A stretch of DNA of 10,171 nt, taken from a virus. Taxonomy: Duplodnaviria; Heunggongvirae; Uroviricota; Caudoviricetes. The stretch lies in the IMG/VR virus record IMGVR_UViG_2541047122_000013; one strand, given 5' to 3'. Positions 1 through 10,171 of this stretch are shown here, in pieces. The position numbers were made by a program, and so were the translations under genes. Below the pieces are notes generated by a model. The model made no database searches. It had not been told where the DNA came from and worked only from the letters and a program-made list of their open reading frames with translations. Numbering within the stretch: the stretch's first letter is position 1; the number at the start of each line of letters is the position of its first letter.

Positions 1-98
1 TTGTGGGTGATCTTCAACTGGGATAGCTACCGTAGCCGTGTAACAGGTAAAGAGTATTAATCCCCGTTTCTGGCGGTATACTGCGACACAATTCCACC

Positions 99-845
99 TT
101 GAGTAATGAGGATGCGGAACTGACAGCGGCGCGTATTGCTGCGGCGCTGGGACTGTATATCCGTAAAGGTGACGGACAGGACTATGAAGATCCGGGGAGC
201 AAAGAGACCGAGCGGGAAGTCCATATCACCCCGGGTATTATTTATGACGATTTGCGCAAGGGCGAGGATATCGGCATGGTCAAATCTGACCGTCCCAATC
301 CCAACCTTGAAACTTTCCGCAACGGCCAGTTGCGTGCAGTGGCAGCAGGCAGTCGTCTGAGTTTTTCCAGTGCGGCGCGTAACTATAACGGCACCTACAG
401 CGCCCAGCGGCAGGAGTTGGTCGAGTCCACGGATGGTTACCTGATCCTGCAGGACTGTTTTATTGGCGCGGTAACCCGCCCGGTGTACCGGACATGGCTG
501 AATATGGTGGTTGCGGCAGGTCTGCTGAAAATTCCGGCGGATGTGGAGATGAAAACGCTATATAACGCGACGTATTCCGGTCCGGTGATGCCGTGGATCG
601 ACCCGGTTAAGGAAGCTGAAGCCTGGAGAATTCAGATCCGGGGTGGTGCAGCGACAGAATCTGACTGGGTGCGTGCTGGTGGGCGCAATCCGGATGAGGT
701 CAAACGTCGCCGCAAGGCTGAAATTGATGAAAACAGCAGACTGGGGCTGGTCTTTGATACTGACCCCGTCAACGACAAAGGAGGCAACAGTGCCGGAACT
801 GAACGACAGTATCAGCGCGACACCGAAAGCCAGCATGAAGAATAA
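99..845 (+). CDS. Portal protein, lambda gpB family, C-terminal ~250 residues only (reading frame closed upstream; truncated or frameshifted)
   Basis: Translation (…RPNPNLETFRNGQLRAVAAGSRLSFSSAARNYNGTYSAQ…) resembles the C-terminal third of lambda portal gpB as I recall it (…LLRYIAAGLGVSYEQLSRNY…YS…). It sits directly upstream of the head protease gene, as portals do. The same frame has stop codons at 24-26 (TAG), 33-35 (TAG) and 48-50 (TAA), and the first start-like codon is TTG at 99 with no Shine-Dalgarno, so the ~280 N-terminal residues expected for a portal are not contiguous. The start coordinate is therefore nominal. Confidence 0.7.
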   Translation: MSNEDAELTAARIAAALGLYIRKGDGQDYEDPGSKETEREVHITPGIIYDDLRKGEDIGMVKSDRPNPNLETFRNGQLRAVAAGSRLSFSSAARNYNGTYSAQRQELVESTDGYLILQDCFIGAVTRPVYRTWLNMVVAAGLLKIPADVEMKTLYNATYSGPVMPWIDPVKEAEAWRIQIRGGAATESDWVRAGGRNPDEVKRRRKAEIDENSRLGLVFDTDPVNDKGGNSAGTERQYQRDTESQHEE

Positions 846-2817
846 ATCCTGGTTCAGGATGCAGGCTGGGGGGCCGGGTGACGCGGATATTTATATTTAT
901 GACGAGATTGGTTTCTGGGGAGTTACCGCGAAGCAGTTTGTCAGCGAACTGAATGCACTGGGTGATATCACCCACATTAATCTCCATATCAATTCACCGG
1001 GTGGCGATGTCTTTGAAGGCATCGCCATTTTTAATGCCCTGAAAAATCAGGGGGCGACCATTACCGTGTATGTGGATGGCGTTGCCGCCTCGATGGCATC
1101 TGTGATTGCGATGGCCGGTGATACGGTCATTATGCCGGAAAATGCCTTCATGATGATCCATAAGCCATGGGGATTCAGTGGCGGGGATGCTGAGGATATG
1201 CGCAGTTATGCCGATTTGCTGGATAAAGTCGAATCGGTACTGTTGCCAGCCTATGCGCAGAAAACCGGAAAAACCACCGATGAAATTGCCGCCATGCTGG
1301 CGGATGAAACCTGGATGTCCGGTGCCGAATGTCTGGCACACGGATTTGCTGACCAGGTGACACCCGCTGTTGAGGCAATGGCATGTATTCAGTCAAAACG
1401 TACAGAGGAATTTAAAAAGATGCCGGAATCCATTCGAAACATGATTACTCCGCCACGCAACAGTGCTCCACGCGTACAGGATGATGGACCTGCAGCCTCC
1501 CGGACGCCAGTGCAGGCAGCAGCACCTGTGGTGGATGAAAACAGTATCCGTGCGCAGGTACTGGCAGAGCAAAAAGCGCGTGTAAACGGTATTAATGATC
1601 TGTTTGCCATGTTTGGCGGGCGTTATCAGACGCTGCAGGCTCAGTGTCTTGCCGATCCTGAATGTTCGCTGGAGCAGGCCCGCGAAAAGCTGTTGAACGA
1701 GATGGGGCGCGAGTCCACGCCATCTAATAAAAATACCCCGGCTCATATTTATGCCGGAAACGGTAATTTTGTGGGGGATGGGATCCGCCAGGCGCTGATG
1801 GCGCGTGCCGGATTTGAAAAAACCGAACGTGATAATGTCTACAACGGGATGACCCTGCGTGAATATGCCCGTATGTCACTGACTGAACGGGGTATTGGGG
1901 TTTCCAGTTATAACCCGATGCAGATGGTCGGTGCGGCGTTCACACACAGTACGTCTGACTTCGGTAATATTCTGCTGGATGTTGCGAACAAAGCCATTCT
2001 GCAGGGCTGGGAAGATGCCCCTGAAACCTATGAACAGTGGACGCGGAAAGGTCAGTTGTCTGATTTTAAAATTGCCCATCGTGTGGGTATGGGGGGCTTC
2101 AGTGCTCTGCGTCAGGTGCGTGAAGGGGCGGAATATAAATACGTCACCACCGGAGATAAACAGGCCACTATTGCACTGGCGACCTATGGCGAGCTGTTCA
2201 GTATCACCCGTCAGGCCATTATCAATGATGATCTGAATATGCTGACCGATGTCCCGATGAAACTGGGCCGTGCGGCGAAATCCACTATTGCCGATCTGGT
2301 TTATGCCATTCTGACGTCTAACCCGAAAATCTCCACAGATAATGTAAGTCTGTTCGATAAAGCGAAACATGCAAACGTACTGGAGAGCGCTGCAATGGAC
2401 GTGGCATCGCTGGATAAAGCCCGCCAGTTGATGCGCGTTCAGAAAGAGGGGGAGCGTCATCTGAATATTCGTCCTGCGTTCGTACTGGTACCGACGGCGA
2501 TGGAGTCTGTTGCTAACCAGGTCATTCGCTCCTCAAGTGTCAAGGGGGCTGACATTAACGCCGGTATTATTAACCCGGTGAAAGATTTTGCGACCGTTAT
2601 TGCAGAGCCTCGTCTTGATGATAACAGCCAGACCACCTTCTACCTGGCTGCGTCAAAAGGCTCCGATACGATTGAAGTGGCTTATCTCAACGGTGTGGAT
2701 ACGCCATATATTGATCAGATGGAGGGCTTCAGTGTGGATGGCGTGACAACGAAAGTGCGTATTGACGCCGGTGTCGCGCCAGTTGATCACCGCGGTCTGG
2801 TGAAATGTACGGCGTAA
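790..2817 (+). CDS. Prohead protease (ClpP/S14-like) fused to major capsid protein (protease-scaffold-capsid single ORF)
   Basis: One uninterrupted frame. The N-terminal part has ClpP-type motifs: IYIYDEIG, INSPGGDVFEGIAIFNAL, an active-site-like GVAASMASVIAMAGD and MMIHKPWG. A Pro/Ala/Gln-rich linker follows, then ~400 residues with major-capsid character (…GVSSYNPMQMVGAAF…TFYLAASKGSDTIEVAYLNG…). Start chosen at GTG 790 because of the strong SD AAAGGAGG at 777-784 with 5-nt spacing. An in-frame ATG at 835 (MKNKSWF…) is an alternative start. The frame is also open back to 643 inside the portal gene. Stop is TAA 2815-2817. Confidence 0.8.
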   Translation: MPELNDSISATPKASMKNKSWFRMQAGGPGDADIYIYDEIGFWGVTAKQFVSELNALGDITHINLHINSPGGDVFEGIAIFNALKNQGATITVYVDGVAASMASVIAMAGDTVIMPENAFMMIHKPWGFSGGDAEDMRSYADLLDKVESVLLPAYAQKTGKTTDEIAAMLADETWMSGAECLAHGFADQVTPAVEAMACIQSKRTEEFKKMPESIRNMITPPRNSAPRVQDDGPAASRTPVQAAAPVVDENSIRAQVLAEQKARVNGINDLFAMFGGRYQTLQAQCLADPECSLEQAREKLLNEMGRESTPSNKNTPAHIYAGNGNFVGDGIRQALMARAGFEKTERDNVYNGMTLREYARMSLTERGIGVSSYNPMQMVGAAFTHSTSDFGNILLDVANKAILQGWEDAPETYEQWTRKGQLSDFKIAHRVGMGGFSALRQVREGAEYKYVTTGDKQATIALATYGELFSITRQAIINDDLNMLTDVPMKLGRAAKSTIADLVYAILTSNPKISTDNVSLFDKAKHANVLESAAMDVASLDKARQLMRVQKEGERHLNIRPAFVLVPTAMESVANQVIRSSSVKGADINAGIINPVKDFATVIAEPRLDDNSQTTFYLAASKGSDTIEVAYLNGVDTPYIDQMEGFSVDGVTTKVRIDAGVAPVDHRGLVKCTA

Positions 2818-2840
2818 ACGTCGCAGACAACAACTCTGAT

Positions 2841-2860
2841 GGCCCGTAAGGGCTTTTTTT
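2841..2860 (+). terminator. Putative intrinsic terminator after the capsid gene
   Basis: Short GC stem GCCC (2842-2845) / GGGC (2850-2853) with loop GTAA, followed immediately by a run of 7 T (2854-2860), 24 nt after the capsid stop. The stem is only 4-5 bp, so it is probably weak or partial. Confidence 0.4.
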
Positions 2861-2871
2861 GTACCTGAAAT

Positions 2872-2890
2872 CAGCCCCTGAACGGGGCTG
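2872..2890 (+). other. Stem-loop immediately upstream of the SD of the next gene (possible mRNA processing or stability element)
   Basis: CAGCCCC (2872-2878) pairs with GGGGCTG (2884-2890), loop TGAAC. There is no T-run after it. It abuts the SD GGAGACAG (2893-2900). Confidence 0.3.
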
Positions 2891-2903
2891 TGCGGAGACA
2901 GTT

Positions 2904-3227
2904 ATGGCAAAGAATTTTGTAGAAGAAGGAAAAACGGTGGCGATTGTTGCCAGTGCAGCCATCAGCAGCGGAGATCTGGTGCAGGTGGGCGATGTTTTTG
3001 CGGTGGCGCTGACCGATATTCCACAGGGTGAAACAGGCGACGGCATGACCGAAGGTGTGTTTATGCTGCCTAAGCTGAAAACGGATGACATGAAAACGGG
3101 TAAGAAGGTTTATCTGAAGTCAGGAAAAGTTCAGCTGACTAACAGCGGCTCTGATCCGCTGGTCGGGGTTGTCTGGGCAGATGCCGGAACCAGTGCAGAA
3201 GAAGTGCCGGTAAAACTCAATGTCTGA
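2904..3227 (+). CDS. DUF2190-family small phage head protein (putative capsid decoration/cement-like protein)
   Basis: 107 aa, MAKNFVEEGKTVAIVASAAISSGDLVQVGDVFAVALTDIPQGETGDGMTEGVFMLPKLK…VGVVWADAGTSAEEVPVKLNV. The Gly-rich beta-type pattern and position just after the major capsid gene are typical of DUF2190 proteins. SD GGAGACAG lies 3 nt upstream of ATG 2904. The TTG at 2859 in the ORF track sits inside the terminator T-run and is unlikely to be the start. Confidence 0.65.
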   Translation: MAKNFVEEGKTVAIVASAAISSGDLVQVGDVFAVALTDIPQGETGDGMTEGVFMLPKLKTDDMKTGKKVYLKSGKVQLTNSGSDPLVGVVWADAGTSAEEVPVKLNV

Positions 3228-3495
3228 TCCCTTTTCCCGGCTGGCAGCGCGTATGGATGCTATCACGGTCAGAAAGATGGGAAAGACAGCCTCGATTAAT
3301 GATGTCGATATGACTGTGATCCCGGGAGAAACACTGGCAGAGCTGAATGCTCTGTCCGGACCTGCGGTCTCTCTGGTGGTGTTTTCTTCGGGATACCGCC
3401 CACGGCGCGGGGATCGCGTTGTTTATGACGGACAACAATGGACGGTCACACGGCATGAACGCTTTAACGGTAAGCCAATGATCTTTATTGAGTAA
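3220..3495 (+). CDS. Head-tail joining protein, gpFII-like
   Basis: 91 aa. The N-terminal region (FSRLAARMDAITVRKMGKTASI) and an RRGD motif resemble lambda gpFII as I recall it. Position immediately before the Z homolog matches the lambda order FII-Z. The start overlaps the upstream stop (ATGTCTGA). Confidence 0.6.
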   Translation: MSDPFSRLAARMDAITVRKMGKTASINDVDMTVIPGETLAELNALSGPAVSLVVFSSGYRPRRGDRVVYDGQQWTVTRHERFNGKPMIFIE

Positions 3496-3506
3496 AGAGG
3501 TGTGGG

Positions 3507-4085
3507 ATGAAGGGGCTTGAGAATGCCATCCGCAATCTGAACAGCCTTGATACCCGTATGGTGCCACAGGCCAGCGCATGGGCGATAAACCGTGTGGCAC
3601 AGAAAGCGGGCTCGGTTGCCACCCGGCAGGTTGCCGGGAATACCGTTGCGGGAGATAACCAGGTGAAAGGGATCCCCCTGAAACTGGTTCGTCAGCGTGT
3701 CCGGGTGTTTAAAGCCAGTCCGTCAGGAAAAATGACGGCCAGGATCCGCGTTAACCGGGGCAATCTGCCCGCCATTAAGCTGGGGACAGCCCGGGTCAGA
3801 CTGGCCCAGCGTGGTGGAAAACTGCAGTACCGTGGCAGTGTGCTGAAGGTGGGTAAATATCTTTTCCGGGATGCGTTTATTCAGCAACTGGCGAATGGTC
3901 GCTGGCATGTGATGCGGCGTATTGATGGCAAAAATCGTTACCCCATTGATGTGGTGAAAATCCCGCTGTCCGGACCGCTGACACAGGCATTTGAAGATGC
4001 CCGCGACCGCATCATTGCTGCGGAAATGCCGAAACAGCTGGGGTATGCACTGAAACAACAACTGAGGTTATGGCTGACCCGATGA
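3507..4085 (+). CDS. Z: Minor tail protein Z (tail completion)
   Basis: 192 aa, the same length as lambda gpZ. Conserved blocks: KGLENAIRNL…AINRVAQKA…NGRWHVMRRIDGKNRYPIDVVKIPL…LGYALKQQLR. SD AAGAGGTG lies upstream of ATG 3507. Confidence 0.85.
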   Translation: MKGLENAIRNLNSLDTRMVPQASAWAINRVAQKAGSVATRQVAGNTVAGDNQVKGIPLKLVRQRVRVFKASPSGKMTARIRVNRGNLPAIKLGTARVRLAQRGGKLQYRGSVLKVGKYLFRDAFIQQLANGRWHVMRRIDGKNRYPIDVVKIPLSGPLTQAFEDARDRIIAAEMPKQLGYALKQQLRLWLTR

Positions 4086-4483
4086 ACCGACATACACAAA
4101 TCCGCCAGGTCGTACTGGCACGCCTTCGGGAACAGTGTGGAGACAGCGCCACGTTTTTTGACGGGCTTCCGGCATTTGTTGATGCGCAGGAACTGCCTGC
4201 CGTGGCGGTGTGGCTGAGTGATGCTCAGTACACCGGAAAAATGACGGATGAAGATGACTGGCAGGCTGTTCTGCATATTGCTGTCTTCATCCGGGCACAG
4301 GCACCGGATTCAGAGCTGGATATGTGGATGGAGAGCACCATTTTCCCGGCCCTGAATGATGTATCGGCACTTTCCGGACTCATCGACACCCTGATCCCAC
4401 TCGGTTTTAACTATCAACGTGATAATGAGATGGCCACCTGGGCGATGGCGGAAATCACGTACCAGATCACGTACACGAATTAA
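4082..4483 (+). CDS. U: Tail terminator protein U
   Basis: Translation …ATFFDGLPAFVDAQELPAVAVWLSDAQYTG…PDSELDMWMEST…ITYQITY matches lambda gpU blocks (ATFFDGRPA, PAVAVYL, PDSELDAWMES). Start taken at ATG 4082, which overlaps the Z stop as ATGA. An in-frame ATG at 4070 is an alternative start that would add four residues. Confidence 0.8.
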   Translation: MNRHTQIRQVVLARLREQCGDSATFFDGLPAFVDAQELPAVAVWLSDAQYTGKMTDEDDWQAVLHIAVFIRAQAPDSELDMWMESTIFPALNDVSALSGLIDTLIPLGFNYQRDNEMATWAMAEITYQITYTN

Positions 4484-4493
4484 GGAGGTGGTA

Positions 4494-5237
4494 ATGACCA
4501 CGCCAAATCCACTGGCAAAGACGAAAGGTGCGGGGACGACGTTCTGGATGTATACCGGCAACGGCGATGCGTTTGCGAACCCTTTGTCGGACACTGACTG
4601 GCTGCGTCTTGCGATGGTGAAGGATCTGCAACCTGGCGAAATGACCGCTGATGCAGAAGATGACACTTATCTCGATGATGAAGATGCAGACTGGAAAACG
4701 ACAACCCAGGGGCAGAAATCCGTTGGTGATACTTCGGCGACGCTGGCCTGGCGTCCGGGTGACAGCGGGCAGAAAAAACTGGTTCAGTTGTTCGACTCCG
4801 GTGAAGTCTGCGCGTTTCGTATCAAATATCCCAACGGCACTGTTGATGTTTTCCGCGGCTGGCTGAGCTCACTGGGTAAAACCATTGCCTCAAAAGACGT
4901 GATGACCCGCACAGTGAAAATCAGCGGTGTGGGGCGTCCATATCTGGCAGAGGAGGGCACTGAAACTGTGGGCGTTACCGGGCTGACGGTGGCACCGGCA
5001 TCCGCCAGTGTCAATGTGGGAGCAACCACCACGCTGACCTTTACAGTAAAACCTGACGGAGCCAGTGACAAAGCGATCAGTGTGCATTCGACAGATCCAC
5101 AGACAGCCACTGTGACCCTGAACGGACTTGTGGCCACGGTGAAAGGCGTGAAGCAGGGCAGCGTCAGCATTGTGGGCATGACCGCTGACGGGAATTTTGT
5201 GGCTGTGGCTGCGGTGACTGTCAGCGCTGCAGGTTAA
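4494..5237 (+). CDS. V: Major tail tube protein V with C-terminal Ig-like (Big_2-type) domain
   Basis: 247 aa. It is collinear with lambda gpV: NPLAKTKGAGTTFWMYTGNGDAFANPLSDTDW…YLDDEDADW…YPNGTVDVFRGWLSSLGK…RTVKISGVGRP. The C-terminal ~90 residues are Thr/Val/Ser-rich beta-type (TVAPASASVNVGATTTLTF…). Strong SD AGGAGGTG precedes ATG 4494. The ORF-track start at 4419 is an upstream extension that overlaps U. Confidence 0.9.
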   Translation: MTTPNPLAKTKGAGTTFWMYTGNGDAFANPLSDTDWLRLAMVKDLQPGEMTADAEDDTYLDDEDADWKTTTQGQKSVGDTSATLAWRPGDSGQKKLVQLFDSGEVCAFRIKYPNGTVDVFRGWLSSLGKTIASKDVMTRTVKISGVGRPYLAEEGTETVGVTGLTVAPASASVNVGATTTLTFTVKPDGASDKAISVHSTDPQTATVTLNGLVATVKGVKQGSVSIVGMTADGNFVAVAAVTVSAAG

Positions 5238-5257
5238 CAGGACGATACTCATCATTT

Positions 5258-5281
5258 GCCCCGGTTATCCGGGGCTTTTTT
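5258..5281 (+). terminator. Intrinsic-terminator-like hairpin between V and G
   Basis: Perfect 7-bp GC stem GCCCCGG (5258-5264) / CCGGGGC (5269-5275) with tetraloop TTAT, followed directly by T6 (5276-5281). It lies 21 nt after the V stop. Confidence 0.55.
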
Positions 5282-5294
5282 GCAGGTGGAGAAC

Positions 5295-5684
5295 ATGATG
5301 TTTCTGAAACAGGGCACGTTTAATTATGAAAAGCAGTCCGTGGTGCTCAGTGAGCTGTCCGGGCTGCAGAGAATTGAATATCTGGCGTTTGTTCAGCAGC
5401 GAACGGCAAAGTTTGATGCCGAAGAGGGAGAACTGCCGGAGGCTGAACGACAGATTGCTTTTCTGCGGATGGGGATGGATATCAATGCCTGGCTGGTTTC
5501 CCGCTCACTGTGGAATGCGGAACAGTCTCAGGATGTTGAGACGCTTTGCGCATCCGTTATTACAACATGGTCGTATGATGCCCTGGGAGCGGGGGCGGAG
5601 ATGGTTCTGTCGCTGAGCGGTATGGGAGCCATTGAGAATGCCGGGGATTTGGAGCATGAGGTGCTGACGCCGGAAAAGTCCTGA
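5295..5684 (+). CDS. G: Tail assembly chaperone G
   Basis: 129 aa (MMFLKQGTFNYEKQSVVLSELSGLQRIEYLAF…). It resembles lambda gpG (MFLK…LSELSALQRIEHLA…LSGM). SD GGTGGAG precedes ATG 5295. ATG 5298 is an equally plausible start. The TTG 5256 of the ORF track lies inside the terminator hairpin. Confidence 0.8.
   Translation: MMFLKQGTFNYEKQSVVLSELSGLQRIEYLAFVQQRTAKFDAEEGELPEAERQIAFLRMGMDINAWLVSRSLWNAEQSQDVETLCASVITTWSYDALGAGAEMVLSLSGMGAIENAGDLEHEVLTPEKS
5672..5678 (+). other. Candidate -1 ribosomal slip site for G-T fusion (GGAAAAG)
   Basis: The T frame is the -1 frame relative to G and is open only from 5660 (TGA at 5657-5659). G stops at 5682-5684. A G-to-T shift must therefore occur within 5660-5684, and the only slippery-looking sequence there is G GAA AAG. 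Confidence 0.45.
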
Positions 5685-5692
5685 CGCGGGAA

Positions 5693-6022
5693 ATGCAGTT
5701 TGTCATGCGGCTTGCCCGGGAGTTCCGGCGGGCAGACTGGCGGCGGATGCTGTCGGAAATGTCGGCCACTGAGCTTGGTGAGTGGGGCGATTATTTCCGG
5801 ATGCAGAGCTTCAGTGATGTGTGGATGGATGCGCAGTTTGCCTCGCTGAAGGCATTGATCGTGAGAATGGTGTCCGGTAGCAGTGATGCTGCGGTGGCTG
5901 ATTTCAGCCTTTTACCGGAAGAGAACGGGATACCGGAGCGAACGGACGAAGAACTGATGCATCTTGGGGAAGGTATTTCCGGAGGTGTGCGTTATGGACC
6001 AGATAGCCAACCTGGTCATTGA
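5693..6022 (+). CDS. T: Tail assembly protein T segment, expected to be expressed as a G-T fusion by programmed -1 frameshift
   Basis: This ORF is in the -1 frame relative to G, lies immediately downstream, and has no SD of its own. The arrangement matches the conserved G/GT pair upstream of the tape measure gene. Coordinates are those of the ATG-defined ORF; the T reading frame itself opens at 5660. Confidence 0.7.
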   Translation: MQFVMRLAREFRRADWRRMLSEMSATELGEWGDYFRMQSFSDVWMDAQFASLKALIVRMVSGSSDAAVADFSLLPEENGIPERTDEELMHLGEGISGGVRYGPDSQPGH

Positions 6023-9000
6023 TTTGGGGATTGATGCGGCAGAGTTTAAAAATGAAATTCCCCGTATCAAAAACCTTCTGAATGGTGCAGCCAGCGATGC
6101 AGAACGGTCTTCTGCCCGTATGCAGCGTTTTATGGAGCGTCAGACTCAGGCCGCCCGGCAGACAATGCAGGCGGCTTCTTCGGCTGCAACAGCCGCATCC
6201 GTCCATGCGCAGACGGTGGAGAAGAGCGCACAGGCTCATGAACGCATGGCCCGCGAGGTGGAGCAAACCCGCCAGCGTATGGAGGCACTGAGCCAGAAAA
6301 TGCGCGAGGAACAGGCGCAGGCCATGGCTCTGGCGGAGGCTCAGGATAAAGCGGCTGCTGCGTTTTATCGTCAGATTGACAGTGTGAAACAGGCCGGTGC
6401 GGGGCTGCAGGAATTACAGCGTATTCAGCAACAGATCCGACAGGCCAGAAACAGTGGCGGGATTGGTCAGCAGGATTATCTGGCGCTGATTTCTGAGGTT
6501 ACGGCGAAAACCCGTGTTCTTACACAGGCTGAGGAAGAGGCTACCCGACAGAAAGTGGCGTTTATCCGTCAGCTTAAAGAGCAGGCAACCCGCCAGAATC
6601 TTTCTTCTTCTGAGTTGCTTCGTGCTAAGGCTGCCCAGCTGGGGGTAAGCAGTGCTGCAGAAGTGTATATCCGCAAAATGGAGCAGGCAGGAAAAGCCAC
6701 GCATTCGCTGGGTCTGAAAAGTGCAGCAGCCCGTCAGGAGATAGGCGTTCTGATAGGTGAACTGGCCCGCGGCAATTTAGGTGCGCTGAGGGGATCCGGA
6801 ATAACGCTGGCTAACCGTGCCGGGTGGATAGACACACTGATGTCACCGAAAGGCATGATGCCAGGAGCGGTTATTGGCGGTATTGCCGCGGCTGTCTATG
6901 GTCTGGGTAAAGCCTGGTATGACGGTCAGAAGGAGGGGGAAGAATTTAACCGCCAGCTGTCGCTGACGGGGCATTATGCCGGAGTCACTGCCGGGCAGCT
7001 GTGGACGCTCAGTCGTGCTATTTCCGGGAATGGTATCACGCAACATGCTGCAGCCGGTGCGCTGGCTCAGGTGGTGGGGAGTGGTGCATTTCGTGGAAAC
7101 GATATCGGTATGGTGGCGAGAGCTGCCGCACAGATGGAGCGATCGGTTGGCCAGTCGGTCAGCGATACCATAAATCAGTTTAAGCGGCTGAAGGATGATC
7201 CTGTAAATGCCGCGAAGGCTCTGGACAATGAGCTGCATTTTCTTACTGCCACTCAGCTTGAGCAGATACGCGTCCTTGGGGAGCAGGGGCGGTCCAGTGA
7301 TGCTGCACGGATAGCCATGTCTGCACTGGCAGAGGAAACCGGTCGGCGTACTGCGGATATTGATAATAACCTCAATGCGCTTGGCAGTACGCTGAAGTAT
7401 CTGTCTGATTTGTGGAGTCGTTTCTGGGATGCGGCCATGAATATTGGTCGTGAAGACTCGCTGGATGAACAGATTGCCGCTTTACAGGAGAAAGTGTCGC
7501 GGGCGAAAAGACTCCCCTGGACGGCATCATCTTCTCAGGTTGAATACGATCAGCAGCGTCTTAACGATCTTCAGGAGAAAAAACGCCAGAAGGATTTGCA
7601 GGATGCAAAAGAGCAGGCAGAGCGGAATTATCAGGAGCAACAGAAACGCCGTAATGCTGAAAATGCTGCACTGAACCGGATGAATGAAACGGAAGCAGCA
7701 CGACATCAGCGTGAAATAGCGCGTATTAATGCCATGCAGTACGCCGATCAGGCTGTCAGGGATGCGGCGATACAACGTGAAAATGAACGTTACGAGAAAG
7801 CCCTGGCATCCGGTAAGAAAAAAACACGCGAAACCCGTAATGATGAGGCCACCCGGTTATTGCTGCAGTACAGTCAGCAACAGGCACAGGTGGAAGGACA
7901 GATTGCTGCTGCCAGACAGTCAGCAGGCATTGCCACGGAAAGGATGACAGAAGCGCGTAAACAGCTTCTGGCTCTGCAGCAGCGCATCAGCGACCTGGAC
8001 GGGAAAAAACTGACGGCAGATGAAAAGAGTGTGCTGGCCCGTAAAGATGAACTGATTCAGGCACTGACGCTGCTGGATGTAAAACAGCAGGAGCTTCAGA
8101 AACAGACGGCACTCAACGAGCTGAAGAAAAAAACAATTCAGCTGACCAGTCAACTGGCTGAAGAAGAGCGCGCTCAGCGTCAGCAACATGACCTGGATAT
8201 CGCCACGGTGGGTATGGGTGATCAGCAGCGACAGCGATATCAGGTACAACTGAGTCTTCGCCAGAAATACCAGCAACAGCTGGAGCAGTTGAGGCGGGAT
8301 AGTGAGCAGAAAGGGACATATAACACGGATGACTACAGAAAGGCCGAGCAGGCGCTGACGGAGAGCCTGAACCGACAACTGAATGAGAATCGCCGTTACT
8401 GGCAACAGCTTGAAGTTGTACAGGGTAACTGGAAAAACGGAGTCCTGCGTGCATTTCAGGATTTTACCGTGGATGCAGATAATACGGCAGAAACAGCAGA
8501 ACAGGTGTTCTCGTCAGCCTTCAGCAACATGGGAAATGGCCTGGCAACTTTTGTCACTACCGGCAAACTCAATTTCAAATCCTTCACCTCTTCTGTGCTG
8601 TCAGATATGGCGAAAATCCTGGCGCAGGCAACCATGATGAAATCGATAAAAGGGATTGGCAGTGTACTGGGATTTGATCTCAGCAGCCTTTCCCTGAATG
8701 CCAATGGGGGGATTTATCAGTCTGCTGATTTGAGTCGTTACAGTGGCACGGTGGTTAACCGTCCGACGTTTTTTGCTTTTGCAAAAGGCGCGGGTGTGAT
8801 GGGGGAAGCGGGACCTGAAGCCATTCTGCCATTGCGTCGTGGTGCTGACGGTAAGCTGGGGGTTGTGGCGGATATTGGGGGTTCAGGTATGGCGATGTTT
8901 TCCCCGCAGTACAACATCGAGATCAATAACGATGGCACGAACGGGCAGATAGGTCCGGCTGCCCTGAAGGCGGTTTATGACCTCGGGAAAAAAGCGGCAG

Positions 9001-9059
9001 CGGACTTTATGCAACAGCAGGCCCGTGATGGTGGTCGGTTAAGTGGAGCATATCGGTAA
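5994..9059 (+). CDS. H: Tail tape measure protein H
   Basis: 1021 aa. Long Ala/Gln/Glu/Arg-rich coiled-coil-like stretches. A hydrophobic Gly-rich segment (GMMPGAVIGGIAAAVYGLG). The C-terminal block GGIYQSADLSRYSGTVVNRPTFFAFAKGAGVMGEAGPEAILPLRRGADGKLGV is the lambda-family tape-measure C-terminal signature. SD GGAGGTG (5981-5987) precedes ATG 5994, which overlaps the 3' end of T. Confidence 0.9.
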   Translation: MDQIANLVIDLGIDAAEFKNEIPRIKNLLNGAASDAERSSARMQRFMERQTQAARQTMQAASSAATAASVHAQTVEKSAQAHERMAREVEQTRQRMEALSQKMREEQAQAMALAEAQDKAAAAFYRQIDSVKQAGAGLQELQRIQQQIRQARNSGGIGQQDYLALISEVTAKTRVLTQAEEEATRQKVAFIRQLKEQATRQNLSSSELLRAKAAQLGVSSAAEVYIRKMEQAGKATHSLGLKSAAARQEIGVLIGELARGNLGALRGSGITLANRAGWIDTLMSPKGMMPGAVIGGIAAAVYGLGKAWYDGQKEGEEFNRQLSLTGHYAGVTAGQLWTLSRAISGNGITQHAAAGALAQVVGSGAFRGNDIGMVARAAAQMERSVGQSVSDTINQFKRLKDDPVNAAKALDNELHFLTATQLEQIRVLGEQGRSSDAARIAMSALAEETGRRTADIDNNLNALGSTLKYLSDLWSRFWDAAMNIGREDSLDEQIAALQEKVSRAKRLPWTASSSQVEYDQQRLNDLQEKKRQKDLQDAKEQAERNYQEQQKRRNAENAALNRMNETEAARHQREIARINAMQYADQAVRDAAIQRENERYEKALASGKKKTRETRNDEATRLLLQYSQQQAQVEGQIAAARQSAGIATERMTEARKQLLALQQRISDLDGKKLTADEKSVLARKDELIQALTLLDVKQQELQKQTALNELKKKTIQLTSQLAEEERAQRQQHDLDIATVGMGDQQRQRYQVQLSLRQKYQQQLEQLRRDSEQKGTYNTDDYRKAEQALTESLNRQLNENRRYWQQLEVVQGNWKNGVLRAFQDFTVDADNTAETAEQVFSSAFSNMGNGLATFVTTGKLNFKSFTSSVLSDMAKILAQATMMKSIKGIGSVLGFDLSSLSLNANGGIYQSADLSRYSGTVVNRPTFFAFAKGAGVMGEAGPEAILPLRRGADGKLGVVADIGGSGMAMFSPQYNIEINNDGTNGQIGPAALKAVYDLGKKAAADFMQQQARDGGRLSGAYR

Positions 9060-9388
9060 TGGAGACGTTTCACTGGAAAGTGCGCCCGGATATGAATGTG
9101 GTATCAGAGCCGAAAGTGGTGACAGTGAAGCTGGGCGATGGTTATGAACAGCGTCGTGCGGCGGGACTGAATAACCAGTTGTCGACTTACAGCGTGACGA
9201 TACGTGTTCGTAAATGTGAACACCCATCTTTAAAAGCCTTTCTGGAACGGCACGGTGGCGTCCGTGCATTTCAGTGGACGCCACCTTATGACTGGAAACC
9301 GATCAGGGTGGTTTGTCGTAAATGGTCGGCAAGCGTGGGGGCGCTGTGGGTAACCATAACGGCAGATTTTGAACAGGTCGTGGCATAG
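9059..9388 (+). CDS. M: Minor tail protein M
   Basis: 109 aa, the same length as lambda gpM, with matching blocks: METFHWKVRP…GDGYEQR…AGLN…TYSVT…HGG…WTPPY…W…ADFEQVV. The start overlaps the H stop (TAATG). Confidence 0.9.
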   Translation: METFHWKVRPDMNVVSEPKVVTVKLGDGYEQRRAAGLNNQLSTYSVTIRVRKCEHPSLKAFLERHGGVRAFQWTPPYDWKPIRVVCRKWSASVGALWVTITADFEQVVA

Positions 9389-9397
9389 GAGGCTCTG

Positions 9398-10095
9398 ATG
9401 CAGGATATTCCACAGGAAACACATCATGAGACGACACGCCTCACTCAGTCAGCCCAGGCGGTGCTCTGGGAAATCGATCTGACAGAGGTCGGTGGTGAAC
9501 GTTATTTTTTCTGTAATGAGCAGAACGAAAAAGGTGAGCCGGTTACCTGGCAGGGGCGGCAGTATCAGGCATACCCCATTCAGGGGACGGGATTTGAACT
9601 GAACGGCAAGGGCAGTTCTGCCCGTCCGACACTGACGGTTTCTAACCTGCACGGCATGGTCACGGGGATGGCGGAAGACCTGCAGAGTCTGGTCGGCGGA
9701 ACGGTGGTCCGGCGTAAGGTTTACGCCCGTTTTCTGGATGCGGTGAACTTCGTCAACGGAAACAGCGACGCCGATCCGGAGCAGGAGGTGATCAGCCGCT
9801 GGCGCATTGAGCAGTGCAGCGAACTGAGCGCGGTGAGTGCCTCTTTTGTACTGTCCACGCCGACGGAAACGGACGGCGCTGTTTTTCCGGGCGTATCATG
9901 CTGGCCAACACCTGCACCTGGACCTATCGCGGCGATGAGTGCGGTTATCACGGTCCGGCGGTCGCGGATGAATATGACCAGCCAACGTCCGATATCACGA
10001 AGGATAAATGCAGCAAATGCCTGAGCGGTTGTAAGTTCCGCAATAACGTCGGCAACTTTGGCGGCTTCCTTTCCATTAACAAACTTTCGCAGTAA
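9398..10095 (+). pseudogene. L: Minor tail protein L (tail tip assembly, Cys-rich C-terminal domain), disrupted by a 1-nt frame break near 9887-9892
   Basis: ORF 9398..10024 encodes an N-terminal part that is nearly identical to lambda gpL as I recall it (MQDI…LWEIDLTEVGGERYFFCNEQNEKGEPVTWQGRQYQ…) up to …DGAVFPG. The conserved C-terminus GRIMLANTCTWTYRGDECGY…KCSKCLSGCKFRNN…LSINKLSQ is in the -1 frame (ORF 9814..10095). Joining the two at CCGGG/CG gives 164 + 68 = 232 aa, the length of intact gpL. SD AGGAGG precedes ATG 9398. Confidence 0.8.
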
Positions 10096-10100
10096 ATTCC

Positions 10101-10171
10101 ATGACACAGACAGAATCAGCGATTCTGGCGCACGCCCGGCGATGTGCGCCAGCGGAGTCGTGCGGCTTCGT
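10101..10171 (+). CDS. K: Tail tip assembly protein K, N-terminal 23 codons (continues beyond the window)
   Basis: ATG 10101 lies 5 nt after the L stop. The translation MTQTESAILAHARRCAPAESCGF matches my recollection of the lambda gpK N-terminus. The frame is open to the window edge. Confidence 0.7.
   Translation, partial: MTQTESAILAHARRCAPAESCGF

Follow-up and report, generated by a model that had tools for sequence, protein, structure and literature searches.

The window analysed here is a stretch of 10,171 bp and corresponds to the complete draft contig AVRL01000023.1 of E. coli Bd5610_99 (assembly GCA_000462365.2). At its left end, host chromosomal DNA runs directly into the interior of a prophage portal gene, of which only the C-terminal 49% is present, without a usable start. 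Because the window is the whole of AVRL01000023.1, both of its ends are contig ends. The two parent sequences, the exact junction with its non-random microhomology, both contig boundaries and the lack of this join in the other genomes and collections searched were established directly, and we infer from them that the join was made in vitro or in silico and not in the cell. The left end is probably a chimeric contig end, an artefact of assembly or library preparation, and not a result of prophage decay.

The portal gene is present as a C-terminal remnant

The mechanical ORF list of the window contains a 248-aa ORF from TTG 99 to 845. Its reading frame (frame 3) is closed by TAG 24-26, TAG 33-35 and TAA 48-50, frame 1 is closed by TAA 58-60, and frame 2 by TGA 8-10, TAA 41-43 and TAA 104-106. 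All of these stops, which had been listed in the original prediction together with a TTG 99 lacking a Shine-Dalgarno motif, were found in the window sequence, and no such motif was present 5' of TTG 99 (cacaattccaccTTG).

An O157:H7 prophage with an intact 500-aa portal (locus L002, 3242-4744) was used for comparison, and residues 256-500 of this portal were identical to residues 4-248 of the ORF at 245 of 245 positions. By this identity and by its match to PF05136 (Phage_portal_2), the plus-strand segment 108-845 represents codons 256-500 of a 500-aa lambda-family portal, without a start codon of its own. The match (E = 3.6e-24, 86 bits, cut-off 32.9) places the remnant in the family but covers only model positions 226-354 of 354, whereas two intact portals cover positions 3-354. 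The remnant also falls short of the full length of about 500 aa. It has neither its own start with a ribosome-binding site nor a position 3' of a terminase and a small head-tail joining gene. The earlier claim that the portal is present only as its C-terminal part was thus borne out by both the residues and the model positions covered, and the remnant as written would be unable to encode a portal.

When window 1-1000 was compared by megablast with 5426 complete E. coli genomes, annotated portal genes were matched at 99.9%, in every case from query position 101 onwards, and a search of the phage collection with the window gave the same pattern. The NCBI annotation of the remnant in AVRL01000023.1 covers 339-845 only. 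No record of the 248-aa product was found on look-up. Portal products of 189 and 168 aa are on record, the versions from other strains being derived from frameshifted or contig-cut portals, none of which adjoins dnaC. A scan of positions 1-900 detected no sigma-70 consensus promoter, a result that says nothing about expression of the remnant.

The first 109 nt of the window are host chromosome

Window 1-109 belongs to the E. coli core chromosome and comprises the 3' end of dnaC, the dnaC-yjjA spacer and the start of yjjA. With window 1-130 as query, positions 1-114 were matched in 5420 of the 5426 complete E. coli genomes, at one place in each, with the annotation "dnaC | yjjA". In O157:H7 PV15-279, the match ran from the final 60 nt of dnaC across the spacer into the start of yjjA. 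Positions 1-60 (plus strand, frame 1) are the last 19 codons of dnaC, LWVIFNWDSYRSRVTGKEY, followed by its TAA stop, and are identical to the dnaC 3' end in chromosomal locus L001 (dnaC at 2323-3060). Positions 61-105 (plus strand) are the spacer, which matches L001 3061-3105 exactly and is single copy in each genome. The 500 nt of dnaC directly upstream of the stub are single copy too, in 5425 genomes. The normal, uninterrupted dnaC-yjjA sequence reads …GAGTAATGATGATGAAAACTG….

TAA 58-60 is the dnaC stop codon, and the triplets at 24-50 that read as stops lie within the dnaC coding sequence but not in its frame, so that the three frame-3 stops are uninformative about the portal. TTG 99 likewise lies within host-derived DNA.

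It had been proposed that a full-length portal carries a frameshift or indel close to the window edge. Nothing beyond the closed reading frames speaks for this proposal. Window 1-105, however, has no portal similarity in any frame and is exact chromosome instead, and the 105 nt that the window has before position 106 leave no room for the 765 nt that a complete portal would require there. When the window, the chromosome and the intact portal were aligned three ways, no portal sequence in any frame was found upstream of 106, which refutes the proposal, and we consider its remaining probability negligible. The companion suggestion, that the 5' part had been deleted or replaced, holds as a description of the sequence, since 109 nt of dnaC/yjjA DNA from the host stand in its place. 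An IS element or an attachment-site boundary at the break was rejected: no IS or tRNA sequence was found there, and the upstream DNA is dnaC/yjjA. To our knowledge, there is no lambdoid attachment site at yjjA.

The junction lies at a short microhomology

In the three-way alignment, the window matched the chromosome exactly up to position 109 and the portal exactly from position 106. The junction is therefore the tetranucleotide ATGA (106-109), which is common to the chromosome (yjjA ATG region) and the portal (codons 255-256); the portal-derived bases start inside codon 255. Around the junction, the chromosome reads …CCACCTTGAGTAATGATGATGAAAACTG…, the window …CCACCTTGAGTAATGAGGATGCGGAACTG… and the portal …GCCCTTAAGGAGTATGAGGATGCGGAACTG…. 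An imperfect microhomology extends over positions 101-122, where the chromosome (GAGTAATGATGATG-AAAACTG) and the portal (GAGT-ATGAGGATGCGGAACTG), each with a single gap, match in 18 of 22 columns.

For comparison with the junction, 20,000 breakpoint pairs were drawn at random from the two loci. Of these, 1.9% had an exact overlap of at least 4 nt and 0.5% a local similarity as high as that observed (p ~0.005). As such overlap and similarity are rare among random pairs (p ~0.005-0.02), the join was guided by microhomology. Non-random microhomology is as expected for template switching. It also marks real illegitimate recombination in vivo, which counts against an artefact, and microhomology at a host-phage breakpoint is what a deletion by illegitimate recombination would be expected to leave.

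The two parent loci are not neighbours. In complete O157:H7 genomes, dnaC-yjjA and the portal lie megabases apart, with portal copies at 1.76 and 2.95 Mb in TR01 and dnaC at 5.56 Mb in PV15-279. The junction was found in none of the 5426 complete E. coli genomes, which include hundreds of O157:H7. A join between non-adjacent loci that is absent from relatives is what a chimeric contig end should display. Exact 44-nt and 30-nt junction patterns had no match in the species-representative genome, metagenome and viral contigs searched, and the predicted reciprocal junction had none in the collections searched; as these collections lack Bd5610_99, both results are weak evidence.

The yjjA ATG at 106 opens an ORF of five codons (ATG AGG ATG CGG AAC TGA, 106-123), whose frame is not that of the portal remnant. 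A real junction would destroy yjjA, and the signals upstream of this gene would then lead into the portal fragment.

The prophage is a hybrid with an intact counterpart

Three segments make up the window. Positions 1-109 are host chromosome. Positions 106-1433 are 100% identical to the head module of an "A-type" O157:H7 prophage (TR01, 1.76 Mb), and positions 1373-10171 correspond to a "B-type" prophage with NleB/NleC-family genes downstream (L013-L017), with 100% identity from 1373 apart from the contig-end differences described below. By the positions of the differences, the A/B crossover lies within a 61-nt stretch, 1373-1433, common to both types. It falls in the intact gene for a ClpP-like prohead protease/major capsid fusion (790-2817, plus strand; 675 aa from GTG 790, or from 835 in the NCBI annotation), which is accordingly a hybrid of two O157 prophage types. 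Exactly this 675-aa product was found in three other contigs only (L021, L022 and one more), where the portal is intact (500 aa). The hybrid looks like a rare but real recombinant prophage and not an assembler error.

The same hybrid prophage, in ABSLUM020000066.1, differs from window 106-9765 by three substitutions and has an intact 500-aa portal and an intact terminase. The portal is also intact in the Logan assembly of SRR9495440. An intact counterpart of the hybrid prophage therefore exists, in ABSLUM020000066.1, and, if the left contig end is chimeric, the portal in the real Bd5610_99 genome is probably intact too, as it is in this close match from another strain.

The portal side of the junction belongs to a module that is exactly repeated over at least 8 kb in O157:H7 TR01 (L002 and L034, with the same protein accessions). 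Contigs of other draft assemblies end inside the portal gene, at positions that correspond to window 304-327 (L028, L030-L033).

Several further observations concern this prophage family. In other loci (L003-L011), the portal gene is split into ORFs of 259-307 aa and 189 aa, and across many independent short-read assemblies of O157-like genomes the portal gene is a hotspot of repeat boundaries and assembly trouble. In a widespread O157:H7 prophage that carries the tail genes of the window (L013-L016, 3271-4852), the portal is split into ORFs of 374 aa and 111/120 aa; 7090 blocks of the collection are indexed as carrying the identical tape-measure protein of this prophage. This 374 + 111/120-aa split looks like a genuine inherited portal lesion of a widespread lineage, unlike the break in the window. 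In the window itself, a Phage_TAC_2 ORF (5298-5684) and an adjoining Phage_tail_T ORF (5693-6022) precede the tape-measure gene (5994-9059), as is usual for the G/G-T tail chaperones of lambda, for which a programmed -1 frameshift is expected.

The right contig end carries two private differences

The second lesion in the window is in tail gene L, whose frame is broken into 9398-10024 plus an ORF at 9814-10095. The break is a private 1-nt deletion at 9891 (plus strand), from CCGGGACG to CCGGGCG, 281 nt from the right contig end. Its 208-aa frameshifted product (ERC72972.1) is recorded in AVRL01000023.1 only. At 10098, the window has T where L017 has C, and T was found at this position in 0 of the 5426 complete genomes. 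From 2077 to the end, the window differs from L017 at 9891 and 10098 only, the preceding 7.8 kb being 100% identical. The chance that both private differences would fall in the last 281 nt is about (281/8095)^2 = 0.001. The deletion at 9891 and the T at 10098 are probably consensus errors of the contig end.

An inherited lesion was considered for the L frame break and rejected, since the 208-aa L products of other genomes come from different single-base shifts and the exact product is private to this contig. In those genomes, the shifts lie 12-17 codons earlier and reach the same out-of-frame stop. Equal length of 208 aa consequently does not imply the same lesion, as different frameshifts reach the same stop.

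With both the portal break and the L frame break at contig ends, unreliable ends are indicated more than prophage decay. Signs of decay elsewhere amount to the one L frame break, and everything else is 100% identical to intact relatives. The original prediction had taken the two oddities together as a sign of either a degraded prophage or a sequence with indel errors. The second part is close to the reading favoured here, that of unreliable contig ends; the first is disfavoured by the location of the oddities and by the 7.8 kb of perfect identity.

Origin of the junction

The contig stops only 109 nt into single-copy host DNA, and no repeat accounts for the stop. A short foreign stub ending without a repeat is what a chimeric contig end should show. 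Neither a continuous host flank past the junction nor a junction inherited by relatives was found; of a cryptic prophage remnant left by a deletion, both would be expected. In the absence of a repeat at the stop, there must have been reads leading on from dnaC in two ways, into yjjA as normal and into the portal. The simplest reason for the assembler to stop is thus a branch downstream of dnaC.

On the reading we favour, the short microhomology is where about 109 nt of single-copy dnaC-yjjA DNA from Bd5610_99 itself would have become attached to the interior of the portal gene. This would most likely have happened by template switching during library preparation, or because the assembler made a wrong join at a contig end bounded by a repeat. 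The chromosomal and the portal parent are each 100% identical to sequence of O157:H7 type, which points to parents from one genome and not to contamination. The 109-nt host overhang is longer than a typical Illumina read of 2013, and for this reason a single chimeric read gives no simple account of the stub.

That the junction is a genuine microhomology-mediated rearrangement, formed in vivo and present in at least part of the sequenced Bd5610_99 culture, is possible but in our view doubtful. The same tentative standing applies to the specific form in which the geometry is that of an inversion and the dnaC-yjjA spacer is fused to portal codon 255 of a hybrid Sp3/CP-933K-like prophage. If true, it would be a non-homologous structural variant joining a prophage to a core gene, as opposed to the usual homologous prophage-prophage inversions of O157:H7.

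A real junction could be subclonal: illegitimate recombination would have joined the dnaC-yjjA spacer to portal codon 255 in part of the culture, the assembly graph would have branched at dnaC and the contig would have stopped there. The non-random microhomology, the O157:H7-type identity of both parents, which places them in one genome, and the stop in single-copy DNA, which fits a branch, are all consistent with such an event. The strands, however, would be incompatible with a viable simple deletion if the prophage occupies the same site as its closest relatives. In PV15-279, dnaC is matched on the minus strand at ~5.56 Mb, and the related prophages in TR01 are on the plus strand at ~0.9 and 1.76 Mb and on the minus strand at ~2.95 Mb, a comparison that mixes the two genomes and assumes that their records share numbering and orientation. 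A join to the plus-strand copies would need a megabase inversion within one replichore, and a join to the minus-strand copy a deletion of ~2.5 Mb that would remove oriC, which we take to lie between dnaC (~5.56 Mb) and the minus-strand prophage (~2.95 Mb) on the E. coli map. The failure to find the reciprocal junction, in collections that do not contain Bd5610_99, and the clustering of errors at the other contig end, which suggests a technical cause, also count against a subclonal event, and we regard it as unlikely.

Less likely still, and in our estimate improbable, is a junction that is both real and clonal. The window would then hold a prophage remnant that has lost its early region, terminase and portal 5' half together with yjjA through a deletion or inversion, leaving head and tail genes beside dnaC. 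The deposited sequence has exactly such an arrangement, which would be a case of classical cryptic-prophage decay; deletion endpoints of illegitimate recombination typically carry microhomology, and a second lesion that inactivates the prophage could be seen in the L frame break. A split portal (374 + 111 aa) also occurs in related prophages of thousands of O157 genomes. With a clonal junction, however, the contig should have extended by kilobases through single-copy dnaC, dnaT and beyond, and this one stops after 109 nt. Moreover, the junction is in no other genome, and the remaining 10 kb are free of decay, being 100% identical to functional-looking relatives except at the contig end.

Implications

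As deposited, the record invites reading as a truncated portal or a degraded prophage, and NCBI annotated the fragment of 168 aa as a "portal". Artefacts of this kind carry over into calls of prophage completeness and structural variants, and into pseudogene counts, that are based on draft O157:H7 assemblies. Before the reads have been checked, neither the truncated portal nor the L frame break should count as a sign that the prophage is degraded. On the favoured reading, that of a chimeric contig end, the break is not a real feature and there is nothing new here biologically. A real junction would be of modest interest, as one more private rearrangement by illegitimate recombination, inactivating one of many lambdoid prophages and deleting the start of yjjA. 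Literature searches for the accession and for the name of the strain found nothing relevant.

Comparison with known systems

The closest known counterpart of the remnant is the lambda-family portal (gpB; PF05136) of O157:H7 lambdoid prophages, for example WP_000974554.1, whose residues 256-500 are 100% identical to it. The order of genes downstream of these portals is as in the window, with a ClpP-protease/capsid fusion, head-tail joining genes and tail genes. In contrast to these prophages, the window lacks portal residues 1-255, the start codon, the ribosome-binding site and the upstream W-like and terminase genes.

Illegitimate recombination at short homologies forms the lambda gal/bio specialised transducing phages and cryptic-prophage deletions. 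These likewise have a host-phage junction at a few bases and have lost the phage genes on one side. Events of the lambda gal/bio type, however, join a prophage to DNA beside its attachment site, whereas the strand geometry of the window fits no simple deletion and its contig has no continuation into a host flank. The microhomology is the one respect in which the window is like such recombination.

Chimeric contig ends in short-read drafts of prophage-rich O157:H7 genomes resemble the window more closely in being bounded by multi-copy lambdoid modules, with a single-copy stub of about one read length, a private junction and consensus errors clustered at the other end. The window differs from them in that its join lies at a microhomology, 4 nt exact within 18 of 22 matching columns, that is equally typical of a biological event.
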